Below, in pieces: positions 28,820 to 58,588 of a DNA stretch of 64,000 bases. Location: positions 3,033 to 67,032 of the forward strand of contig CALVXZ010000002.1 in NCBI GenBank assembly GCA_944371785.1, written 5' to 3'. This stretch comes from an uncultured Clostridia bacterium. GTDB lineage: Bacteria > Bacillota > Clostridia > Christensenellales > DTU072. Position 1 is the first letter of the stretch, and each line of letters begins with the position of its first letter. The notes beneath the pieces are model-generated. The model made no database searches and had not been told where the DNA came from. It was given only the letters and a program-made list of their open reading frames with translations. The translations under genes were made by a program, and so were the position numbers.

Positions 28820-28833
28820 CGAACAAATGTTCT
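28820..28833. promoter_or_regulatory. LexA (DinR) operator / Cheo box
   Basis: CGAACAAATGTTCT matches the Firmicute SOS-box consensus CGAACRNRYGTTYC at 13 of 14 positions. It is intergenic, and its 12-nt core is identical to the box at 58539-58552. Confidence 0.5.
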
Positions 28834-46864: not shown

Positions 46865-47596
46865 ATGAGATCCGGAAGTATCATAACTGCGTTTCTGATA
46901 GCCCTCGCGGTATTTCTGGCGGTATGGAATTTTCTTTCCCCCGCCATAGCGGCGGCGTCCGGCGGGCTTGCGGCAATACTGTGGCTGATCATCGTAAAAC
47001 TCCGCACGGGAAAAGAAAAGAGTTCCCCCGAAGAAATGGCTCTGCTGTTTGCCTTGGCAGGCGGCGAAGCCGAAACCAAAGCCGTGTATTCGACGCTTCC
47101 CGAAAACCTGAGGATAAAGCTGAAGCCCCCCTATTTCGTCACCGAAATAAAAGGCAGGCGCGTAGTCGTGGCGGTGCTTTACAAGTTCCTGGATCTGAGC
47201 CGCGAAGATATCGCCGCCGCGCACAGGTTCGCCGAAAAAGAAGGCATAAACCGCATAATAATTTTGACTTCAGGCAGAAAACGAAGCGTTTTACAGCTGA
47301 CGGCTCTGTTGCCCGAAAGATTCGATTTCCCCACGAAACGGCGCGTTTACAAATATCTTGCGGACAGAAACGCTCTGCCGGCACGCCCCGTAAACGTAAA
47401 GAAAAACAAATTCAAGGCGCTGTCTTTCGAAGAACTTACCGAACTGCTGTTGGATCCGGCGAAATTGAAGTATTACTTCATTACCGCGGCGGCTTTTTTG
47501 CTGATGTCGGTTTTCTTCGAATGGTATTTTTATATGGCGGCGCTGCCGCTGCTGTTCGCCGCAGCGACCTCGCTGAGAACGGCAAGGCATTCCTGA
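46865..47596 (+). CDS. Membrane protein of unknown function (2 N-terminal and 2 C-terminal TM helices with a soluble middle)
   Basis: 243-aa ORF, the only credible plus-strand frame here. The central segment is vaguely restriction-endonuclease-fold-like (RRVVVAVLYKF...INRIIILTSG). Confidence 0.5.
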   Translation: MRSGSIITAFLIALAVFLAVWNFLSPAIAAASGGLAAILWLIIVKLRTGKEKSSPEEMALLFALAGGEAETKAVYSTLPENLRIKLKPPYFVTEIKGRRVVVAVLYKFLDLSREDIAAAHRFAEKEGINRIIILTSGRKRSVLQLTALLPERFDFPTKRRVYKYLADRNALPARPVNVKKNKFKALSFEELTELLLDPAKLKYYFITAAAFLLMSVFFEWYFYMAALPLLFAAATSLRTARHS

Positions 47597-47605
47597 CCCG
47601 GCAAA

Positions 47606-47658
47606 CGAAAAAACTCCCCGTTTCGCTTCAAACACGGCAAAACGGGGAGTCCTTTTTC
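47606..47658. terminator. Bidirectional rho-independent terminator at the left boundary of the phage-like module
   Basis: Perfect 11-bp stem ACTCCCCGTTT/AAACGGGGAGT (47613-47650), flanked by an A-run and a T-run. Confidence 0.65.
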
Positions 47659-47664
47659 GGATTT

Positions 47665-47871
47665 TTATTTAGTTTTAATGATTTGTTTGATCTCGTCGAT
47701 GTCTTCCTTTATCAATTCGACGATCTCCAATTTGTCCGCAAGCGAATTGATAAGGTTTTGGTATTTGGTTTCCCTGGCTTTGCTGTCCTTTATCTGAATG
47801 CAGAACAGAGCCACGAAAAGCATCGCCCAAAGTCCGGAATTAATCGCCGTTTCCCATATTTGTTCCCACAT
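47665..47871 (-). CDS. BhlA/UviB-family holin-like peptide
   Basis: 68 aa with a single N-terminal TM (SGLWAMLFVALFCIQI), then KDSKARETKYQNLINSL and a charged helical tail. This parallels BhlA/UviB (..[28 protein letters not shown]..). The RBS is GGAGG. Confidence 0.65.
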   Translation of the reverse strand: MWEQIWETAINSGLWAMLFVALFCIQIKDSKARETKYQNLINSLADKLEIVELIKEDIDEIKQIIKTK

Positions 47872-48049
47872 CGGTAACCTCCGTCGATAGCAACTCCCCG
47901 TAGAGCGAACTCAGCTCTTTCAGACAGCTCCTGCACAGTCGGAGCCTTGCCGCGGCGGGCGTACCCTGTCGGACTACCTGAAACTCGGCGTAGTTTCCGC
48001 AGCAGCCGTTGTCGCATTTTACCCTTATCGGCATTTTTTCCAATTTCAA
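47840..48049 (-). CDS. Small Cys-rich (putative zinc-ribbon) protein
   Basis: 69 aa with CDNGCC...CRSC. The RBS GGAGGG precedes a TTG start. It overlaps the holin-like gene by 32 nt. Confidence 0.4.
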   Translation of the reverse strand: MKLEKMPIRVKCDNGCCGNYAEFQVVRQGTPAAARLRLCRSCLKELSSLYGELLSTEVTDVGTNMGNGD

Positions 48050-48109
48050 AAAAGATCCCTCCTTCGCTCCGGAGAGCGTTATCTTGTTTGTTCAGTCGGA
48101 TTTTTCGGG

Positions 48110-49168
48110 CTATTGCTTTCTTTCAATGAAATTCCAATAGCCCAATTCGTTGAATTTGTCGGTGCCCAGCAACAACGCCAGATAATCGCGCGATTCTTCT
48201 ATCATTCTGCCGACTTCGTCGGGAGAATACCGCGAATAGAATTCCTTCGCCAAAGCCAGCCGCCTTTGATATTCGGCGGCTTTTTCGGTGCTGACTCCGT
48301 TTTCGCGCTCGAATTCGTTTTCCGCCTTCGCCGCTTCCAATATCGCCTCGTTCCTCTGCAGATACAGATCGGTCAGAAGCTCCTGCCTGTCCTTTTGGTA
48401 TTCGGCTTCGCGTTCCTTTATCTCGGCGTTGTAATCGTTGATCTCCTGCAGCCTTTTTTCTTCCTCGCCGCGCAGTTTCATCACCCCTTCCATAAGTTCC
48501 GCGGCGTACCTCAGATCGAACGCGCTCAGCGCGTTGCGGTATTCGGTTTCAGCCTGTTTCAGTTCCGAATCGATTTTGCGGTATTTAAGGTCGTATTCGG
48601 CGGTGATCGTTTCCAGCTCCTCGGCGGTCTTTTTTCGGATACTCTCGGCGCCCATATCGAAAATAGTGCTGTTCACCAACCCCTGCAGCACCATATTTTC
48701 GGTCAAAGCCGCCGCTTCGGCGCTTGCGGCAAGCCCCAATTCCCGTATAGCTTCGGCTTCGTCCGCCTCTGTTTCGGCGCGCGAAATTTCGGCTGATCCG
48801 GTTTTTTCGTCATAGCGGCTTTCCGCCTCCTCACGCTCCCCGGCATACTTCGCGTCCAATTCCGTCCTGACGGTTTCGGTGATCTCCTCCGAAGTCTTTG
48901 GCTTGTATTCGACGGGCTGAAGATCGAGGCTTTCGGGAATATCGCCGACGTCGTGATAATCGACGTTCAGTTTTTCGGCGCGGTATTTGGCGTCCAATTC
49001 CGTCAACGCCTCTATCAATTCGCGGCTGGAGCCCAATTCGTTGCCTTCGGGCACGTCCGTGTTCGGATCCTTTATTTCGTATTTATCGAAAAAACCGGCG
49101 ACCTTTTCGACGATTTCGTCCAAACCGAACTTGTTTTCCGAATCGGTTTTTTTACTGTTGTTCGCCAT
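48110..49168 (-). CDS. Acidic, predominantly alpha-helical/coiled-coil phage structural protein (function unknown)
   Basis: 352 aa with long E/K/A-rich heptad-like stretches. It occupies the third position after the coat gene. Confidence 0.55.
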   Translation of the reverse strand: MANNSKKTDSENKFGLDEIVEKVAGFFDKYEIKDPNTDVPEGNELGSSRELIEALTELDAKYRAEKLNVDYHDVGDIPESLDLQPVEYKPKTSEEITETVRTELDAKYAGEREEAESRYDEKTGSAEISRAETEADEAEAIRELGLAASAEAAALTENMVLQGLVNSTIFDMGAESIRKKTAEELETITAEYDLKYRKIDSELKQAETEYRNALSAFDLRYAAELMEGVMKLRGEEEKRLQEINDYNAEIKEREAEYQKDRQELLTDLYLQRNEAILEAAKAENEFERENGVSTEKAAEYQRRLALAKEFYSRYSPDEVGRMIEESRDYLALLLGTDKFNELGYWNFIERKQ

Positions 49169-49259
49169 TTCCGCCTCCCGTGCCGACGGCGTCCAATTTC
49201 CTTTCCAGCCGCTTCAGCCTCAATAAAATTTCTTCCAACATTTCCACTACTTCATTCAT
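49152..49259 (-). CDS. 35-aa helical micro-ORF
   Basis: Not in the ORF track (<60 aa). The sequence is MNEVVEMLEEILLRLKRLERKLDAVGTGGGNGEQQ, preceded by AAGGAGGG. Its 3' end overlaps the start of the next gene. Confidence 0.3.
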   Translation of the reverse strand: MNEVVEMLEEILLRLKRLERKLDAVGTGGGNGEQQ

Positions 49260-49268
49260 ACGCCCTCC

Positions 49269-50744
49269 TTATGGCACATACTTTCCGTATTCGTCGAAAC
49301 TGACGACGGCTTCGGATATCCTGATCGGATCCTCGGAACGGAAATACAGGCGTATTTCGCCGCCCGGAGGCGTTTTCAAAGGCGCGAAACTGACTCCGGA
49401 ACCGCCGTAAATTTTAAATTCGTCCGCGCCGTTTTCCGATTCCGCGCCGACGGTGACGGGATAGCCGCTGCCGACGTATACGGAGCGCAGTTTCTTCAAA
49501 GCCTCGGCGTCGCCGGGCTTTACGATCCCCGAACTCCAATATTTTTCGGAAGGAACGCCGTAAAATTTGCCGTCTTCCGTCAAAGATCCCGCGAAAAATC
49601 CGTAATTTCCCGAAAGCGCCAACAAAACGCCTTCCGACAATTCACCCGGAACGGTAGAAAAATCTTCTATGCCGATGCCTCTGACGATGTCCGTCGAATC
49701 GGCTCCGAACGCAAACAAAGCGTTGTTCAGAGTTATCAGCCCTTCGCTGTCTTCAAGTCCCACCTTTTCCGTTCCGAAGGAACGCATTTTACAGCTGAGG
49801 AAGTATTTGTCCATCATATATCCGCCGACGGCGTTTTCTGCGGATTCTATCAGCGGAGTAAATTCGGCGAAAGGTTTTTCGACGGAAGCCGTATCCAGCC
49901 TGTAAATTTCCTCCCCGGCTACGAAATAAATGCTTCTGCCGTCGGAAGCTATCGAACGCGGTCTGACGGGATACGACAAGGTCAGCACTTCTTTTATCGA
50001 AAAATCCTGCGGATCCGCCAGAGCGGTCAGCTTATACACCGAATATTCGCGGAAAACGTAGACTGCGGAACCCATCGAAACGGCTTTCAGCATCCTGCCG
50101 CCAGAACCCATCAGATAGATCTTACCGCCGCCTTCTTCTGGAGCAAACACAAACGGATCCAACAGCTTTGAAAACACCACGGCGTTTTCGTCCGGCAGCA
50201 CCCCGAACACCCTGTCGTAATGTATACAGGCGCCGACTATGCCCGCAGAATCTCCGATCTCTTCCAAACCCGACGTTCCGAATTTGTACATAGCGTTCGG
50301 AGTAAATATCAACGTGTAGTCCTCGCCTTCGGAAAGATAGTTCAAAAAGCTGATCTCGTTCGACAGATCTTTTATCCCCATATAATAAACGAACGATTCT
50401 TCCGGTTCGTCCAAAGAACACGAATAAAACCTTCCGACGTCCGAATACACCAACAATCTGCCGCCGGAAGCTTTGTCGTAATGACGGTGAACGCGCAGAA
50501 TGTTTTCCCCCTCGTTTTGTAAAGACGGCAATCCCTCGCCCGATTTACCCTTTGCGAACTCTATGCCGAACGAATGTTTCAACAGTCCTTCCGATAGCCT
50601 TATATTGTATCCATAGCTACCGATTGAAAGTCTTTTCGGCACAATATCGTTTCTGGAATCGAATCCGGAAAAGGATCCTATGCGATAGGTAAGACGTCGT
50701 ACGGAAGGATATTTTTCGTTTCTGAAGCTACTGTTGAATTTCAT
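49269..50744 (-). CDS. Phage structural protein, beta-rich (possible tail hub/nozzle)
   Basis: 491 aa with a repetitive beta-strand-like pattern and an ATGA overlap with the upstream gene. Its position and size resemble P22 gp10 (472 aa). Confidence 0.55.
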   Translation of the reverse strand: MKFNSSFRNEKYPSVRRLTYRIGSFSGFDSRNDIVPKRLSIGSYGYNIRLSEGLLKHSFGIEFAKGKSGEGLPSLQNEGENILRVHRHYDKASGGRLLVYSDVGRFYSCSLDEPEESFVYYMGIKDLSNEISFLNYLSEGEDYTLIFTPNAMYKFGTSGLEEIGDSAGIVGACIHYDRVFGVLPDENAVVFSKLLDPFVFAPEEGGGKIYLMGSGGRMLKAVSMGSAVYVFREYSVYKLTALADPQDFSIKEVLTLSYPVRPRSIASDGRSIYFVAGEEIYRLDTASVEKPFAEFTPLIESAENAVGGYMMDKYFLSCKMRSFGTEKVGLEDSEGLITLNNALFAFGADSTDIVRGIGIEDFSTVPGELSEGVLLALSGNYGFFAGSLTEDGKFYGVPSEKYWSSGIVKPGDAEALKKLRSVYVGSGYPVTVGAESENGADEFKIYGGSGVSFAPLKTPPGGEIRLYFRSEDPIRISEAVVSFDEYGKYVP

Positions 50745-51274
50745 AGCAATCTCCTTGGCGGAATGTTGAATACCCTGCCGCGTTTGGTGAGGTTATTTAC
50801 TGCGGATTCGAATCTGTTGCGGAAAAATACCGCCTCGTCCAATAACGAGCTCCTGTAGAAATATTCCGCCGCGGCGCCTACCGCAACGACGTATTCGGAA
50901 AACTGCGGCGGCAGAATCAGTTCGTCGCTGTTCTGCGTAGGGATAATGTAATACAAATAATCTATTTCGACTTCCCCCGTGTAATCTTCCGCCTGTATGA
51001 ATTGAGGATATTCGGTAAATTTCAACCGGCCGGCAGGACTTTTTATCGCAAGTATTTCCCTGACGCGGTATTTCAGGTCTTCGTAAAAGATCTTGCCCCT
51101 TTCCGCTTCGGTTTTTTCCTTTGTCCTCAGCGGAATGTATTCGGTAACCATTTCCGTATATACGGTGATCACGGAATCTCGGATCTTGTTATAAATCTGC
51201 ACGGGCATATCCAACAGGGTTTCGTTGACCCCTATTATGGAAGCCACTCGTTCAATGATATCCTGAAGTGTCAT
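50741..51274 (-). CDS. Phage head-completion/adaptor-position protein
   Basis: 177 aa, immediately after the coat gene. Its position and size resemble P22 gp4 (166 aa). Confidence 0.5.
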   Translation of the reverse strand: MTLQDIIERVASIIGVNETLLDMPVQIYNKIRDSVITVYTEMVTEYIPLRTKEKTEAERGKIFYEDLKYRVREILAIKSPAGRLKFTEYPQFIQAEDYTGEVEIDYLYYIIPTQNSDELILPPQFSEYVVAVGAAAEYFYRSSLLDEAVFFRNRFESAVNNLTKRGRVFNIPPRRLL

Positions 51275-51336
51275 TCATCCTCCTTTTTTGCCGGGTGCAC
51301 GGCGCACCCGGCAAAACCGCTGAAAACCTTTAATTT

Positions 51337-52554
51337 TTACGCGCCTGCGGTTTCATCGTCGGTCGTTGCGGAGGTATCGGCGACGGGGTCGGTGATCCCG
51401 TACAATCTGCCTTGCGCCCTCGGGAACGCCGCGACGAAGTTCGCGTATTTTACCAAAGTGGCGGTATATACGGCTTTTCTGTCCAATTGGTTCAGGATAG
51501 AACCTTTTTCGCCTTCCAGCCATTCCCAATCGTTCAACTCCACCAATTTCAAAGACGGAGTATTCAGGAAATACATTTCGCCGTCGGGAGCGAATCTTTC
51601 GCTGACCACGGGCACGCCGTTGAATGACAGAGTTTTGAAACCGCCGTCAAGGTTCAGGTAATCGATGTTCCTGCGGTTTAATTCAAGCTGTTTCAGGTAC
51701 TGACGTCTGGTCTTTGCCGAACAGACTATCATATCGGGTTCAGCGCCCGCCCTCAGGGAAGCCGAATCGAAAAATTCTTGCATTGCGTCTACGGTAAGTT
51801 CGGCGCCGAGATTCTGGGTCATCGGTTTAATGCCGGGATTTGCCGTCTTGTTCACGCCGTAATATGAAACCGCGTCGCCGAAAAGATACGGCAGACCGTT
51901 CACTTCGTTGTCTTTGGACTTCTGAACGTACACCTCGTCGCCGGCTTGCGCGGTAACGGAGCCCATTTCTTCGTGACGGACTATGAACTTTTTGTTCTCG
52001 TGATCGACGTCGTAAACTCTTACGCCGCCTTTCAGCAACGATCCGCTGCGATAGATATCGACTTTCATTCCGCCTGCCAACATTCTGGTGTTGTCGACGG
52101 TGACTTCGGGCATACTTCCCGATTTATAGGACTCCACGGTAGCCAGCAAGCCGTCGCCGTCCATCCAAAGCATTCTGTTCAGGTTAAAGCGCGCGGAGCG
52201 CACCATAGCGCGGATTTCGTTATTCAGAATGCCGACGATGCCCGAAGCGTTGTCGCGCGAAGCGCGCAAAGCCTTATCGGTGATGTCTATGACGCCGTAG
52301 ATATTTTTCAACGGCACGCTGAACGCCGCCCTCATACATTCGCCGGCGTCGGGGAGTTCTCCGGCTTCCTCGGTAGTCCCCAATCCGCCGCAGATACCGT
52401 ACATGGTCGGCACAACGGCTTCCTTACCGCGTATTTCCGCGGCGGTTTTTTCTATTGCCTGATATAACGGGCTGACGCCGGTGTTCAACGAAGCGCAAAT
52501 GGCGTCCAGATAATACGATTTCAATACTGAATCGATGGATTCGACTGATAACAT
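51337..52554 (-). CDS. Phage major capsid (coat) protein
   Basis: 405 aa, directly after the scaffold gene and before the adaptor-like gene. No prohead protease gene is present, which points to a scaffold-dependent assembly type. Confidence 0.7.
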   Translation of the reverse strand: MLSVESIDSVLKSYYLDAICASLNTGVSPLYQAIEKTAAEIRGKEAVVPTMYGICGGLGTTEEAGELPDAGECMRAAFSVPLKNIYGVIDITDKALRASRDNASGIVGILNNEIRAMVRSARFNLNRMLWMDGDGLLATVESYKSGSMPEVTVDNTRMLAGGMKVDIYRSGSLLKGGVRVYDVDHENKKFIVRHEEMGSVTAQAGDEVYVQKSKDNEVNGLPYLFGDAVSYYGVNKTANPGIKPMTQNLGAELTVDAMQEFFDSASLRAGAEPDMIVCSAKTRRQYLKQLELNRRNIDYLNLDGGFKTLSFNGVPVVSERFAPDGEMYFLNTPSLKLVELNDWEWLEGEKGSILNQLDRKAVYTATLVKYANFVAAFPRAQGRLYGITDPVADTSATTDDETAGA

Positions 52555-52557
52555 ATC

Positions 52558-53184
52558 CTATTCTCCTTTCATTTTTTTCAAATGTTCCGCGGCAAGTTTC
52601 CCTGCTTCCGCAATGTTATGCGGTCTCGCGGATATCCCTGCGGGAGAAAGCGCCCTCATAACGGGTATCCTGGGCGGCTGCGCTGTAATTTCCTGCGATT
52701 GCGTTTCGCTTATGCCGATTTCGGCTGTAGCGGCCTCCGAAGATACTGCGTTTGTGCGGCGCACGGATTCGGTCTGTTCGACGGCTGCCGTCGCTTGGTT
52801 TTTTTTCGTTTCGCCGTAGCTGCGACTTGCCAGCACGTTCAGCAACGCTTTTTCCAGGCAGTCCTCGCTGGATATCAGCTGTTGATTTGCCTTCAGATAT
52901 TCGCCGATTTCGCGTCCCAACGTACCGGACACAGGGTACTTGTCGTGCAGCTCCTGCAGCTTTTTTTCCCAAACCTCTTCCTGTTTCCTGGTTTCGAACT
53001 TTCCTTCAAGTTCCTTCAGCCGTTGGGAACGCCTGGTAAATTCGGCTTCCAACGCGTTATAGGCTTTTAAGAGTTCGTCGCCGTTCGAAAACTTTCCGAA
53101 AGAGTCCGTTTTCACCTTGTCGTCCCGATCGGTTGCCGCCGGGGCGGGATTTGATACGGATTGTTCTGTTGCAGTGTTTTCCAT
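52558..53184 (-). CDS. Phage scaffolding protein
   Basis: 208 aa, helical and charged (ELLKAYNALEAEFTRRSQRLKELE), located between portal and coat. Confidence 0.6.
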   Translation of the reverse strand: MENTATEQSVSNPAPAATDRDDKVKTDSFGKFSNGDELLKAYNALEAEFTRRSQRLKELEGKFETRKQEEVWEKKLQELHDKYPVSGTLGREIGEYLKANQQLISSEDCLEKALLNVLASRSYGETKKNQATAAVEQTESVRRTNAVSSEAATAEIGISETQSQEITAQPPRIPVMRALSPAGISARPHNIAEAGKLAAEHLKKMKGE

Positions 53185-53201
53185 TTTGTTTCCTCCCGTT
53201 T

Positions 53202-54965
53202 TTATTGCATTTCCGCCTGCGCCGCCGCTTTTGCGGACAGCGAAGCCAATATTTTATGTTTTCTGACGTGTTTTTCTATCCTTTCCAAGGCTTCCTTGCC
53301 GATATCGGCTCCTGCGGCAAAGGAGCTGTGTTCGGAAATGTGCAAGGCGTGTTCGTCCAATTCGGAAGCGTCCGCGTCCTTTCCCGAATTCATCAGCGCG
53401 TTTTCGCGTTCGGCTTTTTTCAGATGCACTTCTTCGGAGCTTTTTGCCGCTTCCCAATTCCCGAACCCTAACATTTCGACTATCTTTGCGCGGTTACGGT
53501 TGGATATCATTCCGTTTTCGTCACTCAGCAAGCCGTATCTCATCAGCTCCAGCACCATATTTTTTCTGGTGGCAGGCGATTCGACCATTTCGGAATCGGT
53601 TTCCTGCACCACGTCGTCGCCGCCGAGTTCGGAACCGATAAAAGCCACGGCTTCAAGCTCTCCGGAATCGCCGGAGATCAGCACCAGCCTTTTTTTGTCC
53701 GCGAACTGTTTGTAAAGCCGCAGGCTCTGCCTTGCGACCTCCTTTGCGGCGGAGCGGATCGATTCCGTAGTGACGGTCATTCTGGCGTTTTCCTGTTCCA
53801 GCAAAAGACTCAGGGCGTATCCCGACATGGAGGTCAACCCCGAACCGGAAACGCTAAGCACGTTGGAAACGCCCGAAATGCTCCTGAATTCTTCGATGAG
53901 TCTGTCCTCTTCGTCCCTGAATTCGGCGGGCACGGTGCCGGGATTCATCGGAACGGGCGGATTGGAGCCCTGGCGGTAAACGACGACGCGTCCGGGATAA
54001 AAGCCTTCTTCTTCCAACGATTCAACGTCGACGGCACCGTCTTCGACGGCGTAAACTCCGCCCGAAAGCCGCGCCATAAATTCGTGTTTTCTGTTTTTAA
54101 CGGCGTTGTAAGCGCGCTGGACGGGTATCAGGCGTTCTATCAGGCTGGCTCCGAAAAAGCTGCCCGGAGCATTCAGCGCGCACTGTCTGACGAACGGAAA
54201 ACCGCGTTTACCGTTGGCGCCGTTTATGTACGGCAGCGCGCCGTCGTGGATAAGTTTGTCGCCTGCGACTATGGTAAGTCTGCCGTCCGGATCCTCTTTC
54301 GAGGGTGCGGAATACCTTTCCAAAACCAATGCGTAGCCCGTGCGGCAATCGTCCTTACCCAATCTGACGGGATCGCCTTCCAGCCCGTAAATATCGACGT
54401 CTTCGGGCTGAGCTTCGACTCCCCACAATTCGTATATCGCTTCCACGGGGTAGATTTTCGCGTGGATGACGCTCCTCAGCGACGACAGCGACGGCGCGGA
54501 CAAATCGTCGGGATATATCTCCTGCGGAGGGCATACGGCGATCTTTACGCCGCCGTTTTCGTCCCATACCACCTTATAAAAAGCCGTGCCGGTCAGTTCC
54601 GCCCAATAATTTGCCTCGGCAACAAGCGCGGTAAAGTTGTTGTCCCTTAACGTGGCGTCGATGATCTTTCCGGAAAGCTTTGCGGCGTTGATCTCTTTTT
54701 CGTCCGCGCCGGCAGGGCGCACGTTGACCGCGCAGTTCACCCTGGAAAATTTGGCAAGCCGCGTTTCTATGATCGGCGCGATATGATTGTAAATCTCCTT
54801 GTCGCGCCTGTCGTCCGTCACGTCGCCGGCGGGATCCAGAAACACGTTCTGTTTTCCCTGCATAAATTTGATGTTCAGTTTCCATTTCGATTCCTGAAAA
54901 CGGCGGCGGTTTCTCCTCTCCTCGAAGTCCGAACGTATTTCAAGAACCAGATCTTGTGTATCCAT
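53202..54965 (-). CDS. Phage portal protein
   Basis: 587 aa, directly after TerL. The N-terminal region (KWKLNIKFMQGKQN) and overall pattern are portal-like. Confidence 0.75.
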   Translation of the reverse strand: MDTQDLVLEIRSDFEERRNRRRFQESKWKLNIKFMQGKQNVFLDPAGDVTDDRRDKEIYNHIAPIIETRLAKFSRVNCAVNVRPAGADEKEINAAKLSGKIIDATLRDNNFTALVAEANYWAELTGTAFYKVVWDENGGVKIAVCPPQEIYPDDLSAPSLSSLRSVIHAKIYPVEAIYELWGVEAQPEDVDIYGLEGDPVRLGKDDCRTGYALVLERYSAPSKEDPDGRLTIVAGDKLIHDGALPYINGANGKRGFPFVRQCALNAPGSFFGASLIERLIPVQRAYNAVKNRKHEFMARLSGGVYAVEDGAVDVESLEEEGFYPGRVVVYRQGSNPPVPMNPGTVPAEFRDEEDRLIEEFRSISGVSNVLSVSGSGLTSMSGYALSLLLEQENARMTVTTESIRSAAKEVARQSLRLYKQFADKKRLVLISGDSGELEAVAFIGSELGGDDVVQETDSEMVESPATRKNMVLELMRYGLLSDENGMISNRNRAKIVEMLGFGNWEAAKSSEEVHLKKAERENALMNSGKDADASELDEHALHISEHSSFAAGADIGKEALERIEKHVRKHKILASLSAKAAAQAEMQ

Positions 54966-54975
54966 GCTGCCTCCT

Positions 54976-56427
54976 TTAATGTTTTGTAGCGCGTCTTAAA
55001 CGCAGCAATCTTTCTTTGTATAAAGCCGTTTTGGAAAGTTTTTTCCCGCGCGGCTTGTTTTCGGGGCGGGACATTATGAAATAGCGCAATTCGTCCATAG
55101 CGTGGTCGTTGCGCTTTACGGGAGTATCTCCGTTTCCCCACCAATAGCCCTTCAGCTCCTTTATCATCATCGGGCAATCGGAAAAAACGTATATCGCCGG
55201 CGGCCTTTCGGCAAACAGCCGCCGCACTCGGCTGATACCCGAAAACAGATCCTTGTTCACCGACGTGTTGACGGCTATGCCGTTTTCGAAAAAGAGTTCC
55301 GAAACCGATTTTGCCGCAGCCAAAGTGCGCTGATTCGCCGCAGGATCTATCAACGCTTCCAACTTTCCGTCGGCGCGGCGACGCCACCCCAGCCTGTCGG
55401 CAACGCGGAATATTTTTTCGGAATGCGCCTTTACGTCCAGCCCTGCCTCGTAATGTTCGCCCACGACGTAAACCGTTCCGTCGTAGTCGCAGCAATAGAA
55501 ATGACAGGACAGCGGATTTTTTAATCCGGGGTCTATCGATATAGCCGATTGCCATTCGGGCGGAACGTCAAAAGGCTCGATAACGTGTACCGAAGGGTCG
55601 AATTCGGGATACACAAGTCCGCATTCCGCGCGAAACCGCCCGAACCTTCTGGATTCCAATTCCTCTTCCGAAAGCGTGGCGGAAAGCCTGTCTGTTTCCT
55701 CTTTCATCAAAAAAGGATTGTCCGCCCACTCCATTTGCTCCGTCCATATTTCGGGGTCGGAGGCAGAATTCAGATAGATCTCGTCATACACCCAGGTCAG
55801 CCCTTTTAACGGCGTCATCGTCCCGAAGATATCCCCCGACTTGTCCAGGACGCGCATACGGCATTCGTCGTAAATTTCCTTCGGAGGCTCCTCGTCGAAC
55901 CATACGAAATCCAACGAAGCCCCCTGAAAGCATTCCCTGCCCTGCGCCGCCGATTTAAAACCGAGTTTGGATATTCCGCCGAACACGTTTTTTATGTAAA
56001 CCGTGTCGATAACGCCGCCTTCGGGAAAATCCTTTGAACCTTCCGCCATGGTGACGCGCTCTATCCAATCGGGATTCAAGTACCTTAAAACTTTAGCCTG
56101 CGCGACGTCGCGTTGTACTTCGCGGCTGACCGAAACCGCCCAACCGCTGACGTTTTTTCGGTTTTTGCGGTACGGATGACAGCCCCGGCACATCCATACG
56201 GCTTCTACCGCGCCGCATTCGGTTTTACCGCTTCTGTTGCCTCCGAATACCCACCGGTTCCGTGCTTCGGACTTGTGAAAAGCCAACTGTTTCAGATGCA
56301 CCTTTTCGCCCGTATTGTAATCGGCTAGTTTGTTCTTTTCCTTTCTCTGCCTCTGTTCCGCCTCTATCTTCAGCAATCTTTTAACGACTTCCTCTGCGGA
56401 GTCCCGAGTAATATCTTTCCGCGGCAT
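54976..56427 (-). CDS. Phage terminase large subunit
   Basis: Contains Walker A FGGNRSGKT, Walker B LDFVWFDEEP and a C-terminal nuclease motif NDHAMDELRYF. Confidence 0.85.
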   Translation of the reverse strand: MPRKDITRDSAEEVVKRLLKIEAEQRQRKEKNKLADYNTGEKVHLKQLAFHKSEARNRWVFGGNRSGKTECGAVEAVWMCRGCHPYRKNRKNVSGWAVSVSREVQRDVAQAKVLRYLNPDWIERVTMAEGSKDFPEGGVIDTVYIKNVFGGISKLGFKSAAQGRECFQGASLDFVWFDEEPPKEIYDECRMRVLDKSGDIFGTMTPLKGLTWVYDEIYLNSASDPEIWTEQMEWADNPFLMKEETDRLSATLSEEELESRRFGRFRAECGLVYPEFDPSVHVIEPFDVPPEWQSAISIDPGLKNPLSCHFYCCDYDGTVYVVGEHYEAGLDVKAHSEKIFRVADRLGWRRRADGKLEALIDPAANQRTLAAAKSVSELFFENGIAVNTSVNKDLFSGISRVRRLFAERPPAIYVFSDCPMMIKELKGYWWGNGDTPVKRNDHAMDELRYFIMSRPENKPRGKKLSKTALYKERLLRLRRATKH

Positions 56428-56719
56428 CGCGTAAACCGTCCTTTATGTTATTGTCCTCCGCCCTGAGGTAACTGTTTTCGGCGCGTTCGTTGGCAGACTC
56501 GATCTCTTTCAATATCGATTGCATCCTTTCGATCCGGGTACGCTCGGCGTCGTACACCATTCTGACGTCCACGGTCGGATAAGGATAGATCAGCTGTATG
56601 CCGCCGCGGCTGTCACGCAAAGAAAATCTGCCCGTCTCCGCGTCGAAGTGGAGTTCGTATTCGGGGTCGATCTCTTTCAGCCTTGCGGCGACGTCCAGAA
56701 CGTCGTGGGTGATCTTCAT
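56381..56719 (-). CDS. Hypothetical phage protein immediately upstream of terL
   Basis: Start set to the ATG at 56719 (MKITHDVLDV...) with a GGGAGG RBS. 112 aa. It overlaps the terL start by 47 nt. Confidence 0.45.
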   Translation of the reverse strand: MKITHDVLDVAARLKEIDPEYELHFDAETGRFSLRDSRGGIQLIYPYPTVDVRMVYDAERTRIERMQSILKEIESANERAENSYLRAEDNNIKDGLRDAAERYYSGLRRGSR

Positions 56720-56797
56720 AAAACCTCCCGGCATATTCTGCCCGTTTAATTTAAATTCGGCGTATTTTCGCACGCCGTAAGGGATAAAATTTATTTT

Positions 56798-57619
56798 ATG
56801 AAAGCCTTATTTGCGGCTATATTCATAATGATTTTCGGAATCGGCGGCACCGCATACGCGGACGGCACTCCGCACATAAAAGTCGAAGGCGAAGTGTGGA
56901 TGGCAGACGATCAGGGCGTGCGGCTGTTCACGCTGCCCGAAAGCTACTATATCCGTATCAATAATCTGGACGAATCGTTTTATTACATCACCTTCAACGG
57001 CGTCAGCGGAAAAGTGGACAAAAACTCGGTAGTCACGGTGGGATACCACACGGAAGCCCCCGGAACTCAAAAGGATCTGACGATATCCGACGAATTCGGG
57101 GAATTTTCGGCGATAAATTTAAAATCTTCGCCCGACGTCGCTTCCGAATCGGTATGCGAAGTCCCGATAGACGCCACCATAGTCTTTATCGGCGAATACC
57201 CTAAGGAAAAATTGTGGTATTACGTCCGCTACGGCGAAACGTACGGTTATGTGCGCGCTGACAGAACCGATATGCCCACGCCCGATTATCCGGCTTTCGT
57301 TCCGGAGCCCGAACCCGATCTGCCGGCTTCCGCCGATCCCGACGGCTCCGCGGAGCCCGAAGACGCCGAGGACACGGTATTGAAAATCGTCGTAATCGCG
57401 GGGCTGGCGATACCTGCTCTGGCTCTGATAATATTCCTTTTCCGCCGCGGAGGCAAACGACGTTACCGTTACGAAGACTACGGCTATAGGCGCGGTGACG
57501 GCGAAAGATATTATTCCGAAAACGAACGCGCCCGTATCGGCGAACGCGACTACCGCAACGAAGTTTACCGTCCGTTCGACCGCGACGATTCCGAACGCTA
57601 TACCAATTCCGACGATTGA
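56798..57619 (+). CDS. Secreted/anchored protein with SH3b-like repeats, one TM and an R/Y/D/E-rich cytoplasmic tail
   Basis: Signal peptide MKALFAAIFIMIFGIGGTAYA. Two segments end in ..YYITFNGVSGKVDK and ..WYYVRYGETYGYVRAD (SH3b-like). A proline/acidic linker is followed by a TM helix (IVVIAGLAIPALALIIFLF) and a RRYRYEDYGYRRGDGERYY tail. This is the only plus-strand gene inside the module. Confidence 0.65.
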   Translation: MKALFAAIFIMIFGIGGTAYADGTPHIKVEGEVWMADDQGVRLFTLPESYYIRINNLDESFYYITFNGVSGKVDKNSVVTVGYHTEAPGTQKDLTISDEFGEFSAINLKSSPDVASESVCEVPIDATIVFIGEYPKEKLWYYVRYGETYGYVRADRTDMPTPDYPAFVPEPEPDLPASADPDGSAEPEDAEDTVLKIVVIAGLAIPALALIIFLFRRGGKRRYRYEDYGYRRGDGERYYSENERARIGERDYRNEVYRPFDRDDSERYTNSDD

Positions 57620-57621
57620 AT

Positions 57622-57936
57622 CTAAATGCTCTCCGTCGGTTTTTTCGTCTTTTTTCCCTCCAACGCCTTCAATTCCTTTAAAAGCCGTTCCTTTTCGGCG
57701 GCAAGTTCTTCGTCGCTATAATCGGAAAAGCTGTCGCCTCCGTCCAATTCCAGGCAGGCTTTCGCCGCGGAAACGTCGGGAGGGTAATATTTTATCTGGG
57801 TTTTTTCTTTTACCGCACGGCGGTTGCCGTCCTCGTCCAGAACGTATTCAATAACTCTTTCTTCCGCCTCCAGACCCTCGGCGCGTTTTCTGAGCCCTTC
57901 AATGACGCGCGCCCTGTTCTTATCGCTTCTTTTCAT
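57622..57936 (-). CDS. Small basic/acidic phage protein, possible terminase small subunit
   Basis: Start set to the ATG at 57936 with a GGAGG RBS. 104 aa. The YYPPDVSAAKACLEL segment resembles the PDxxAxxFxL segment of some TerS proteins. This assignment is weak. Confidence 0.35.
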   Translation of the reverse strand: MKRSDKNRARVIEGLRKRAEGLEAEERVIEYVLDEDGNRRAVKEKTQIKYYPPDVSAAKACLELDGGDSFSDYSDEELAAEKERLLKELKALEGKKTKKPTESI

Positions 57937-57974
57937 ACTGCCTCCGAATGTTTGTGTGCGCAAAAAAAGGGCTG

Positions 57975-58000
57975 TCCGCCCCGTTTCGAAAATCCTTCGT
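57975..58000 (-). terminator. Weak terminator or attenuator after the activator gene
   Basis: The minus strand reads GGGC-GGACA-GCCC followed by T7. The stem is only 4 GC pairs. Confidence 0.3.
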
Positions 58001-58016
58001 TTGCTTTCCGCCCCTT

Positions 58017-58508
58017 CTATCCGTTGCTTTTGCCGAAACGCGCGGCAAATCTGTAACCGGCATCCACCTCTTCGGCGGCGTCGATGAAGTACGGCTCCGT
58101 ATTAAAATATTCAAGTATGTTTTCTTCGTCAAAGCCCAACATCTCGACGTAAAACTGCACCTTCCTTAAAGCCTTGGAGCGTATGTACTTTAAACCCGAA
58201 CGGGTCAACCCGAAAGCCTTCATTATGCTTTCCTTGTCCTTCCCTTCGAAAAATTCCGCCGAAATCAGCTTTCTTTCGCGTTCGCTTAAAAGACCCAACG
58301 TCGCGTTCATCGAAGTGTGAAAACGCTTCAGAGCGTCCAATGTCATCGCCGCGACCAGATAATCGGTCAGCACTCTTTCGGCGTCTATCCCCGTAATGTT
58401 GTAATCGAAACTCCTCAGCCGTTTGATCCTTGCGGAATACTTCCGCTTCAGATCGTTCAGATCGGGATAGACTGTTAAAATAATTTTCGCCATTTTAGCG
58501 GACAGCAT
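58017..58508 (-). CDS. Sigma-70 region-4-like / ArpU-RinA-type phage late transcriptional activator
   Basis: 163 aa. LSERERKLISAEFFEGKDKESIMKAFGLTRSGLKYIRSKALRKV is a sigma region-4 type HTH. It is the first gene of the module, upstream of the packaging genes, which is the usual position of ArpU/RinA-type activators. Confidence 0.55.
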   Translation of the reverse strand: MLSAKMAKIILTVYPDLNDLKRKYSARIKRLRSFDYNITGIDAERVLTDYLVAAMTLDALKRFHTSMNATLGLLSERERKLISAEFFEGKDKESIMKAFGLTRSGLKYIRSKALRKVQFYVEMLGFDEENILEYFNTEPYFIDAAEEVDAGYRFAARFGKSNG

Positions 58509-58538
58509 CCGAATCCCCCTTTTTAGGTTTAAGATTTG

Positions 58539-58552
58539 CGAACATTTGTTCG
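58539..58552. promoter_or_regulatory. LexA (DinR) operator / Cheo box at the activator gene TSS
   Basis: CGAACAAATGTTCG (read on the minus strand) is a perfect palindrome matching CGAACRNRYGTTYC at 13 of 14 positions. It starts 7 nt downstream of the -10 hexamer. Confidence 0.6.
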
Positions 58553-58559
58553 TATTTTT

Positions 58560-58588
58560 ACTATATCACCGCTTCTCCGCAATGTCAA
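58560..58588 (-). promoter_or_regulatory. Near-consensus sigma-A promoter of the activator gene
   Basis: The minus strand reads TTGACA (58588-58583), 17 nt, (TGa)TATAGT (58565-58560). Confidence 0.55.

Follow-up and report, generated by a model that had tools for sequence, protein, structure and literature searches.

What keeps a compact set of phage head and packaging genes among the housekeeping genes of an uncultured Clostridia bacterium, and what could such genes still do? This question is raised by a 10.9-kb module at positions 47665-58588 of a 64,000-nt stretch of contig CALVXZ010000002.1 (hereafter, the window). We propose that the module is a domesticated and vertically inherited set of capsid, packaging, and neck genes, derived from a podovirus and wired to the SOS response, and that it most likely makes particles similar to gene transfer agents (GTAs). 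From the sequence evidence, we give this reading a probability of about 0.6. The module is best filed as an order-wide member of the recently described short-tailed GTA-like elements.

All 13 open reading frames (ORFs) of the module are present and intact. Two of the products, an adaptor and a nozzle, were identified by Foldseek matches of AlphaFold2 models, and most of the others were assigned by family profiles (Pfam, PHROGs, and NCBIfam). The head and packaging genes lie on the minus strand. The large terminase TerL (54976-56427; 483 amino acids [aa]) matches Terminase_6N (E 7e-12) and phrog_2 (E 9e-31), and its translation, read by eye, contains Walker A (GNRSGKT), Walker B (FVWFDEE), and nuclease motifs. 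It is followed by a portal protein (53202-54965; 587 aa) with matches to P22_portal (E 5e-14), SU10_portal (E 1e-10), and phrog_156 (E 2e-27). The major capsid protein (51337-52554; 405 aa) is of the podovirus type (NCBIfam capsid_maj_Podo, E 9e-56; phrog_14242, E 1.5e-41). The 208-aa product encoded at 52558-53184 is a putative scaffolding protein, because it is conserved (cluster c1, 76 members) and its gene sits between portal and coat; Pfam and PHROGs gave no family match for it. At the end of the module, a gene at 47665-47871 encodes a 68-aa holin-like peptide of the BhlA/UviB family (Holin_BhlA, E 5e-17; phrog_2429, E 6e-14). The terminase with its motifs, the portal, the coat, and the BhlA-type peptide had all been named in the original prediction, which was made by reading the nucleotide sequence, and these calls are confirmed. 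The same prediction described a minus-strand block; its ORFs are as listed, but a conserved plus-strand gene (56798-57619), which the prediction missed, lies inside it.

The gene that follows the coat (50741-51274, minus strand) encodes a 177-aa protein predicted to be a head-to-tail adaptor. Its model (predicted local distance difference test [pLDDT] score 87.5) has portal-tail and neck complexes as the top Foldseek matches, led by KHP30 (7wmp_m, E 9e-7) and followed by crAss001, PhiM1, SU10, and N4 (9lc0_H, template modeling score 0.73). Lower in the ranking come entries that bear the name adaptor, T7 gp11 (7box) among them, and KP32 tail tubular protein A. No P22 gp4 entry was recognised among the matches listed, and entries of the Sf6 head complex reached E 0.1-0.3 only. 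The fold comparison alone is informative here, as a search of the adaptor sequence profile against the PDB returned nothing useful. The next gene (49269-50744, minus strand) encodes a 491-aa protein predicted to be a beta-propeller tail nozzle. The model has a mean pLDDT of 68, with values mostly above 80 over approximately residues 100-320, and 19 of its top 20 Foldseek matches are chains of podovirus tails or portal-tail complexes. The matches include Pa223 (9nwi_Y, E 5e-15), VP1, Pan3, T7 gp12, SU10, and P22 gp10 (8eap_D, E 3e-8; further chains 9jg6_a and 8u10_1), and the nozzles of Pa223, VP1, and the T7 type score above P22 gp10. The nozzle family profile also matched an SU10 chain in the PDB (7z47_G, "surface protein", E 1e-4).

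Because the predicted folds of the adaptor and the nozzle match podovirus tail hubs, the module appears to encode a stub tail of portal, adaptor, and nozzle. Compared with the known hubs (T7 gp8/gp11/gp12, SU10, N4, and P22 gp1/gp4/gp10), the module shares the P22/SU10 portal family, the folds of adaptor and nozzle, and the order portal, scaffold, coat, adaptor, and nozzle. It differs in that it has no fibres, tailspikes, or ejection proteins, and no gp26-like needle was identified among its products. The three proteins encoded after the coat had been predicted to be virion proteins that parallel P22 gp4, gp10, and gp26. Profile and structure searches uphold this for the nozzle as a counterpart of gp10, and for the adaptor as a neck protein whose likeness to gp4 is only generic. 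For the third, a 352-aa protein, they gave weak helical matches only, and its equation with gp26 is unsupported.

The distribution of these genes provides the evidence for domestication. When the coat was searched against a protein database, 464 homologues were found, and their identity falls off smoothly (100, 84, 75, 62, 50, and ~40%). Many of these sit on contigs of 0.1-2.4 Mb and are therefore chromosomal. A species-level scan, in a collection with one genome per species, found at least 518 stretches that encode a relative. The best 80 of these were fetched with 10 kb on either side, and their gene content was compared by tblastn and by clustering of all ORFs (such related loci carry labels of the type L001; L138, L152, and L153 are IMG/VR contigs). 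Almost all of these best 80 loci come from metagenome-assembled genomes (MAGs) of Christensenellales-type Clostridia, with titles that name Christensenella, Christensenellaceae, and Candidatus genera from chicken gut. The nearest among the matches listed is Candidatus Stercoripulliclostridium merdigallinarum (84%). Most fetched loci of sufficient length keep the same set of genes, namely, the regulator, the opposite-strand membrane-protein gene, TerL, the TerS-like gene, the Cys4 gene, portal, scaffold, coat, a homologue of the 130-aa ORF, adaptor, nozzle, DUF7934, and BhlA. TerL is 57-89% identical across the family.

Sequenced phages are distant from this family; the best matches have only 29% identity for TerL, 25% for the coat, and 22% for the portal, and neither the nozzle nor the DUF7934 protein has a match among them. 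In IMG/VR, most matches are the same short module, and many copies were called viral by the IMG/VR pipelines. The most distant relatives there (L152:1-21176, L153, and L138; 29-32% coat identity) are proviral contigs of 20-53 kb, in which the coat gene is followed by a 697-aa protein at the nozzle position and then by fibre and pre-neck-appendage proteins. From this gene content, these contigs resemble genuine podophage-type prophages and are probably living members of the phage lineage from which the module arose.

Within the host clade, the module behaves as a chromosomal locus. Relatives with 75-83% coat identity carry it at the same locus as the window, and a yqfD-side context is common to the deeply diverged copies L004, L029, L044, and L075. 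In comparisons with the closest relatives, the ratio of nonsynonymous to synonymous substitution rates (dN/dS) was approximately 0.07-0.29 in the module, compared with 0.05-0.38 in its neighbours (the rows for the 113-aa and 130-aa genes were excluded), values that are qualitative because dS is saturated. Moreover, where loci have a flanking housekeeping gene in common, the identity of that gene tracks that of portal, coat, and TerL; over 15 pairs, r is 0.92 for RNase J, and over 28 pairs it is 0.80 for cluster c19. Taken together, the distribution, synteny, purifying selection, co-divergence, and distance from phages favour a domestication that took place long ago, after which the module descended vertically. 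This sequence evidence strongly supports the conclusion that the module has been domesticated and is maintained, and that it is not decaying. The original prediction had reached the same view of a maintained element and had proposed synteny and purifying selection as the check, both of which came out in its favour.

The missing phage functions could also be explained if the module were an inert prophage remnant, left unexpressed after a deletion and now slowly decaying. Most phage functions are indeed absent. Against such decay stand the intactness of all 13 ORFs, the recurrence of the same set across several hundred species down to ~40% coat identity, purifying selection comparable to that on the housekeeping neighbours, and a conserved promoter with its LexA box. 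We consider a remnant extremely improbable.

The edges of the module and its surroundings bear on a second alternative, that of mobility. On the left, a bidirectional terminator-like hairpin at 47610-47660 (AAAAAACTCCCCGTTT...AAACGGGGAGTCCTTTTT, with an A-run and a T-run) separates the module from a convergent gene for a 243-aa protein; its loop is too long for the hairpin scan to report, and the structure was read from the sequence. On the right, the outermost feature is the promoter of the regulator gene (TTGACA-17-TATAGT, 58588-58560). The block has a G + C content of 0.48-0.54, compared with 0.44-0.56 in its surroundings, and there is no compositional break. Family searches found no integrase, replication, fibre, or endolysin gene within the window, and no att site, primase, or repressor was found there either. 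Among the 80 related loci, no recurrent integrase-, replication-, fibre-, or endolysin-like family occurs within 10 kb of the module, and the annotated neighbours are housekeeping genes. A terminator at the left edge, an own promoter at the right edge, the even composition, and the lack of these four kinds of gene had each been read from the sequence beforehand, and all of these readings stand.

The tRNA-Cys/Leu genes of the right flank were considered as an attachment site and rejected; they are approximately 4 kb away, beyond three host genes. Large downstream genes in relatives were also examined as candidate fibres, and those with Pfam matches proved to be a host sensor kinase, an M60 peptidase, a solute-binding protein, and a chloride channel.

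Capsid-forming phage-inducible chromosomal islands (cf-PICIs) have genes of their own for TerS, TerL, portal, scaffold or protease, coat, and connectors, and none for a tail. A helper-dependent island of this kind, which would borrow tails, replication, and lysis from a helper phage, shares with the module the encoded heads and packaging and the lack of fibres and endolysin, and the viral calls in IMG/VR would suit it. cf-PICIs differ in having an integrase, a repressor, a replication module, and mobility, for none of which we found a sign in the window or beside the 80 loci. The module also stays at the same chromosomal locus in related species and diverges along with its neighbours, and its own adaptor and nozzle imply a portal closed by a podovirus stub tail rather than free for a borrowed long one. 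A satellite therefore seems very unlikely, and on the comparative evidence we rejected this reading together with that of a prophage remnant. What remains is a chromosomal, phage-derived structural cluster without genes for integration, replication, or lysogeny, which is inherited vertically in its host clade under purifying selection; these are features expected of a GTA.

How such a module might be switched on is suggested by its right end. The regulator gene (58017-58508, minus strand) encodes a 163-aa protein with a sigma-70 region-4 domain, which could be a sigma-like factor or an ArpU-like late activator (Pfam Sigma70_r4, E 1e-3; NCBIfam PRK06759, E 6e-7; ArpU, E 0.017). Its family profile matches region 4 of a sigma factor in the PDB (8x6g_H, E 3e-7), and region 4 is the sole sigma domain detectable in the Pfam, NCBIfam, and PDB profile searches. 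The gene is kept at the head of the module across the related loci. In front of it, a consensus scan identified a putative sigma-A-type promoter (58560-58588, minus strand) with a 17-nt spacer and an upstream TG; it agrees with the consensus at 11 of 12 positions and scores highest in the region. A LexA (Cheo/SOS) box, CGAACATTTGTTCG, lies 7 nt downstream of the -10 hexamer (58539-58552) and is the only perfect match to CGAAC-N4-GTTCG within the window. We infer LexA binding at this site from the known Gram-positive consensus. Among the 61 related loci with enough upstream sequence, 26 have a box with at most one mismatch (mostly CGAACAAATGTTCG) just upstream of the regulator gene, and such boxes are four-fold enriched there (0.27 per kb, compared with 0.063 per kb elsewhere; p = 2e-9). 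Because of the perfect box at the regulator promoter and its recurrence in these loci, the sequence predicts SOS induction of the module.

The regulator gene is followed by one for a short TerS-like protein (57622-57936, minus strand). The ORF has 113 codons' worth of translation (113 aa), and its likely true start at 57936 gives a protein of ~104 aa. The original call of a TerS-like protein stands in a weak form, since only the C-terminal part of phrog_309 (terminase small subunit) is matched (E 1e-4, profile positions 196-270 of 319). The family shares the conserved motif KxKVTxKxVPPDxxAxKxxLE, and its profile has no useful match in the PDB. No helix-turn-helix or other DNA-binding domain was recognisable in the family alignment or the profile matches. 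In relatives, the TerS-like gene is either coupled to the regulator gene or adjoins TerL. The two genes appear to form one unit, since in close relatives they overlap or are 19 nt apart.

Between this unit and TerL lies the opposite-strand gene (56798-57619, plus strand). Its product of 273 aa has hydrophobic segments at both ends, which by eye resemble an N-terminal signal and a C-terminal transmembrane segment, and a weak match to SH3_3 in Pfam (21.4 bits, E 3e-4) that is under the 27-bit cut-off. A homologue is found on the opposite strand between regulator and TerL in at least 34 related loci across deep divergence (e.g., L001:5014-5844 and L023:4670-5455). The gene is convergent with the regulator/TerS-like unit and, in close relatives, divergent from the structural operon across only 60-90 nt. 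Its product could be a receptor, an immunity factor, or a lysis-control protein, or the gene could be a source of transcriptional interference.

One proposal gives this membrane protein a central role. A fraction of SOS-stressed cells would fill small capsids with chromosomal fragments, and the membrane protein, on the recipient or the producer side, would act as a docking, receptor, or immunity factor for a bare nozzle. The module would then be a self-contained transfer system that needs no fibres and is restricted to kin. We regard this as a speculative and rather improbable version. If it were true, exchange would be limited to cells that carry the same module, which would be an ancient, order-wide DNA-sharing organelle of Christensenellales and the genetic basis of GTA-like packaging in virus-like particle data from the human gut.

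The GTA-like reading in its general form can be compared with one close precedent, FpGTA of Faecalibacterium prausnitzii (Nat Commun 2026; PMC12946183). It was the only paper on FpGTA that a literature search found, and with it the original remark, in which no described system of this architecture was known from sporulating Firmicutes, is outdated. FpGTA I is an integrase-less chromosomal operon of 10.5 kb with ten ORFs (CP030777: 2536737-2546346; products RCH50844-RCH50852). Its products include a TerS in which no DNA-binding domain is obvious, along with TerL, portal, scaffold, coat, and hypothetical proteins. A separate 5.5-kb operon, FpGTA II, has fibre, receptor-binding, holin, and endolysin genes. 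The particles are ~40 nm in size, have no visible tail, and contain random pieces of host DNA of ~8.5-9 kb. Among the proteins in the proteomics table are a nozzle, for which PDB 8eap is the match, and an abundant protein annotated as "TolA" that is encoded at the operon end. The element is near-ubiquitous in its host clade, and the authors, citing PBSX, leave open whether the particles deliver DNA. They also report GTA-like packaging for Christensenellaceae MAGs, with fragments of 4.1 and 7.1 kb for HGM11616 (HGM11616 sp900761075) and 6.3 kb for QANA01 (QANA01 sp019420265), and name no locus (PMC12946183); these fragments of 4-7 kb compare with a module of 10.9 kb.

We compared our gene annotation with the text and proteomics table of that paper, that is, by description only. 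The two elements have in common a TerS or TerS-like protein with no recognisable DNA-binding domain, TerL, portal, a gene at the scaffold position, coat, and conserved hypothetical proteins that include a nozzle, and PDB 8eap is matched by the FpGTA nozzle as well as by the 491-aa protein. Neither operon contains fibre or endolysin genes, and the "TolA" protein recalls the Glu/Ala/Lys-rich DUF7934 protein. The differences are also clear. FpGTA belongs to a host of the order Oscillospirales rather than to Christensenellales-type Clostridia, has a Prp-annotated gene between portal and coat, and has no LexA box, sigma-like regulator, opposite-strand membrane-protein gene, or cis-encoded BhlA peptide described for it in PMC12946183. 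Among 20 DUF7934 matches looked up, no Faecalibacterium name appeared, the labels being at most "Clostridia bacterium". The particles, DNA content, and proteome of FpGTA were shown by experiment, whereas for our module particles are a prediction from its genes.

Other known systems resemble the module in part. GTAs of the RcGTA type are phage-derived structural clusters that are vertically inherited in a large host clade under purifying selection, with a TerS that has no DNA-binding domain, accessory genes at other loci, and regulation by host circuits. The module shares the phage-derived cluster, the vertical inheritance, the purifying selection, and the kind of TerS. RcGTA differs in being siphovirus-like with a full tail in the cluster and in its control by CtrA/GafA and quorum sensing. 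Its coat, portal, and terminase lineages are unrelated, and its neck proteins are only weak matches of the adaptor (ranks 29-37). PBSX of Bacillus subtilis is a domesticated, SOS-inducible phage-like element of a Gram-positive spore-former that packages ~13 kb of random host DNA. It differs in having a contractile tail, a killing particle, and a cluster of ~28 kb with tail genes, lysis genes, and an xre repressor, and as far as family searches show it has no sequence relation to the module.

The proposed control has a parallel of its own. In the UviA/UviB cassette of the Clostridium perfringens bacteriocin BCN5, and in sigma-plus-holin pairs of the TcdR/TcdE type, a promoter that responds to DNA damage drives a small sigma-type regulator. 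That regulator governs a cargo operon whose last product is a BhlA/UviB-family peptide with a putative role in release. The module is alike in the LexA box at the regulator promoter and in the BhlA-family peptide that ends the controlled unit. The cargo there is a toxin, whereas here it is a capsid and packaging operon, and the regulator here matches sigma region 4 only, whereas a sigma factor of the TcdR/UviA family would have regions 2 and 4.

With these parallels, a course of events under the GTA-like reading can be proposed. DNA damage would inactivate LexA and free the strong promoter of the small sigma-region-4 regulator, which would be co-transcribed with the TerS-like protein. The regulator would then switch on the structural operon, which would begin in the short divergent region beside the opposite-strand membrane-protein gene. 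Scaffold, coat, and portal, the genes of which are identified, would assemble into a small procapsid, and TerL, together with a TerS that has no DNA-binding domain, would fill it with host DNA by a headful mechanism and with no sequence preference. The predicted adaptor and nozzle would close the portal into a stub tail, and the DUF7934 protein may be a further component of the particle. Release would involve the BhlA-type peptide, probably with lysis and receptor-binding genes elsewhere in the genome.

Several points weigh against this proposal. Particle production, random packaging, and DNA delivery are all steps that we infer from gene content. Neither the window nor the sequence adjoining the module in any of the 80 relatives yielded a receptor-binding protein or an endolysin, and because of this, delivery may not occur. 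A LexA box with at most one mismatch is present in no more than 26 of the 61 loci. A k-mer search upstream of TerL for a late promoter gave no clean motif, as it mostly returned the start region of the divergent membrane-protein gene. Lastly, the FpGTA coat is assigned to the "N4-gp56 family" (NCBI), whereas the coat here matches capsid_maj_Podo and has no other relevant NCBIfam match at E < 0.1. To judge from these annotations, FpGTA and the module may be separate domestications.

The same points lead to a different view of what selection maintains. The module could be domesticated and expressed for a function other than transfer, such as SOS-triggered lysis and DNA release, a capsid that protects DNA, or a bacteriocin-like particle, with BhlA and the capsid serving the population otherwise. 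None of the 80 loci has a gene for a fibre or a receptor-binding protein within the module or close to it, BhlA-family peptides are filed in PHROGs under bacteriocin production or immunity, and delivery was left open for FpGTA, with reference to PBSX (PMC12946183). On the other side, the complete packaging motor, with a strongly conserved TerL (57-89%) and portal, suggests that filling with DNA is under selection, and the killing particles of PBSX and tailocins depend on tails, which the module does not have. Fibre absence is also weak evidence here, as the fibres of FpGTA are at a second, unlinked locus. We judge a function other than transfer to be unlikely, although it deserves to be kept in view. 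The original prediction had offered a GTA-like element, a satellite, and a DNA-release device as options. The first of these fits best, and the satellite fails for want of an integrase, a replication gene, or any sign of mobility.

If the GTA-like reading is correct, the locus would be informative in several respects. Few GTA-like systems are known, with only two in Gram-positive bacteria (PBSX and FpGTA), and the only short-tailed type, described in 2024-2026, is from one genus. With this locus, the type would come to include several hundred species of Christensenellales-type Clostridia, which are prominent among gut bacteria. The locus would also provide a candidate cluster for the GTA-like packaging of DNA from Christensenellaceae seen in human faecal virus-like particles, for which no locus was named. 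The SOS-wired regulator and the conserved opposite-strand membrane-protein gene would be features beyond those described for FpGTA in PMC12946183, and the conserved LexA box is a concrete, testable induction signal. The minimal set of regulator, TerS-like protein, TerL, portal, scaffold, coat, adaptor, nozzle, DUF7934 protein, and BhlA peptide could also serve as a model of a domesticated podovirus.

Among the remaining products, the 352-aa protein rich in Glu, Ala, and Lys (48110-49168, minus strand) belongs to DUF7934 (PF25588, E 2e-34) and is probably a virion component. This family has 207 representatives among 1.84 billion proteins. Its profile has weak matches only, which in the PDB are coiled-coil or otherwise helical proteins and in PHROGs a tape-measure family. 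Literature searches for DUF7934, and for the combination of BhlA, terminase, portal, and domesticated, found nothing.

The gene content beside the nozzle varies among lineages. Some have extra genes between the nozzle and DUF7934 that encode either 288-aa and 74-aa proteins or a 165-aa protein (L029:13315-14466, L044:9823-10945, and L075:13013-14212; just after the nozzle gene in L018, L043, L051, and L058). In other loci (L060, L071, and L074), a different protein of ~416 aa replaces the nozzle cluster. None of these proteins has an informative family match, and they could be tail-tip or receptor-binding parts. Two loci have a gene in two pieces, namely, the nozzle in L004:12025-13487 (ORFs of 78 and 395 aa) and TerL in L079:5367-7000 (354 and 158 aa). 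Frameshifts from sequencing, or decay confined to single lineages, may account for them.

Two small genes of the module are conserved and lack a family assignment. The first (56381-56719, minus strand; cluster c9, 44 members) is a 130-aa ORF with no informative match in Pfam, PHROGs, or the PDB profile search; its start was set at an ATG preceded by GGAGG at 56719, which gives a protein of ~112 aa. The second (47840-48049, minus strand; cluster c11) encodes a 69-aa Cys4 (CxxC...CxxC) mini-protein with no match in Pfam or PHROGs. These two genes distinguish two groups of gene order. The Cys4 gene comes after DUF7934 here and between TerS-like and portal in most relatives (e.g., L019:1363-1587), and the 130-aa gene is before TerL here and just after the coat in most relatives. 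From these positions, the comparison shows one ancient rearrangement in a gene set that is fixed in other respects. The BhlA gene closes the module in many relatives, some of which add a Phage_holin_1 gene.

Outside the module, the left flank contains genes for the 243-aa membrane protein, nadD-HD, rsfS, a component of an energy-coupling factor (ECF) transporter, tsaE, tsaB, and rimI. The 243-aa gene (46865-47596, plus strand), which is convergent with the BhlA gene, has no family match and is found at the same place in relatives that share the locus of the window (43-55% identity in L001, L007, and L008); it may be a host gene or a part of the module. The right flank contains a MATE transporter, a 261-aa ORF, a ZIP transporter, tRNA-Cys/Leu, and DUF4364. 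The remaining 47 kb of the window has cell-division, protease, and sporulation genes (mraZ/mraW, mur ligases, ftsZ, clpP/clpX, lon, SpoIVB, SpoIIGA, and sporulation-type sigma factors). The head of the cell-division cluster has, ~280 nt upstream of mraZ, a one-mismatch LexA-like box (CGAACAAATGTTCT, plus strand, 28820-28833), which may reflect an SOS link to division control or chance. Within positions 1-37000, genes for the SpoIVB peptidase, SpoIIGA, and sporulation-type sigma factors occur beside the division and cell wall (dcw) cluster, clpP-clpX-lon, and trigger factor, and with these genes the earlier assumption that the host is a spore-former is reasonable.

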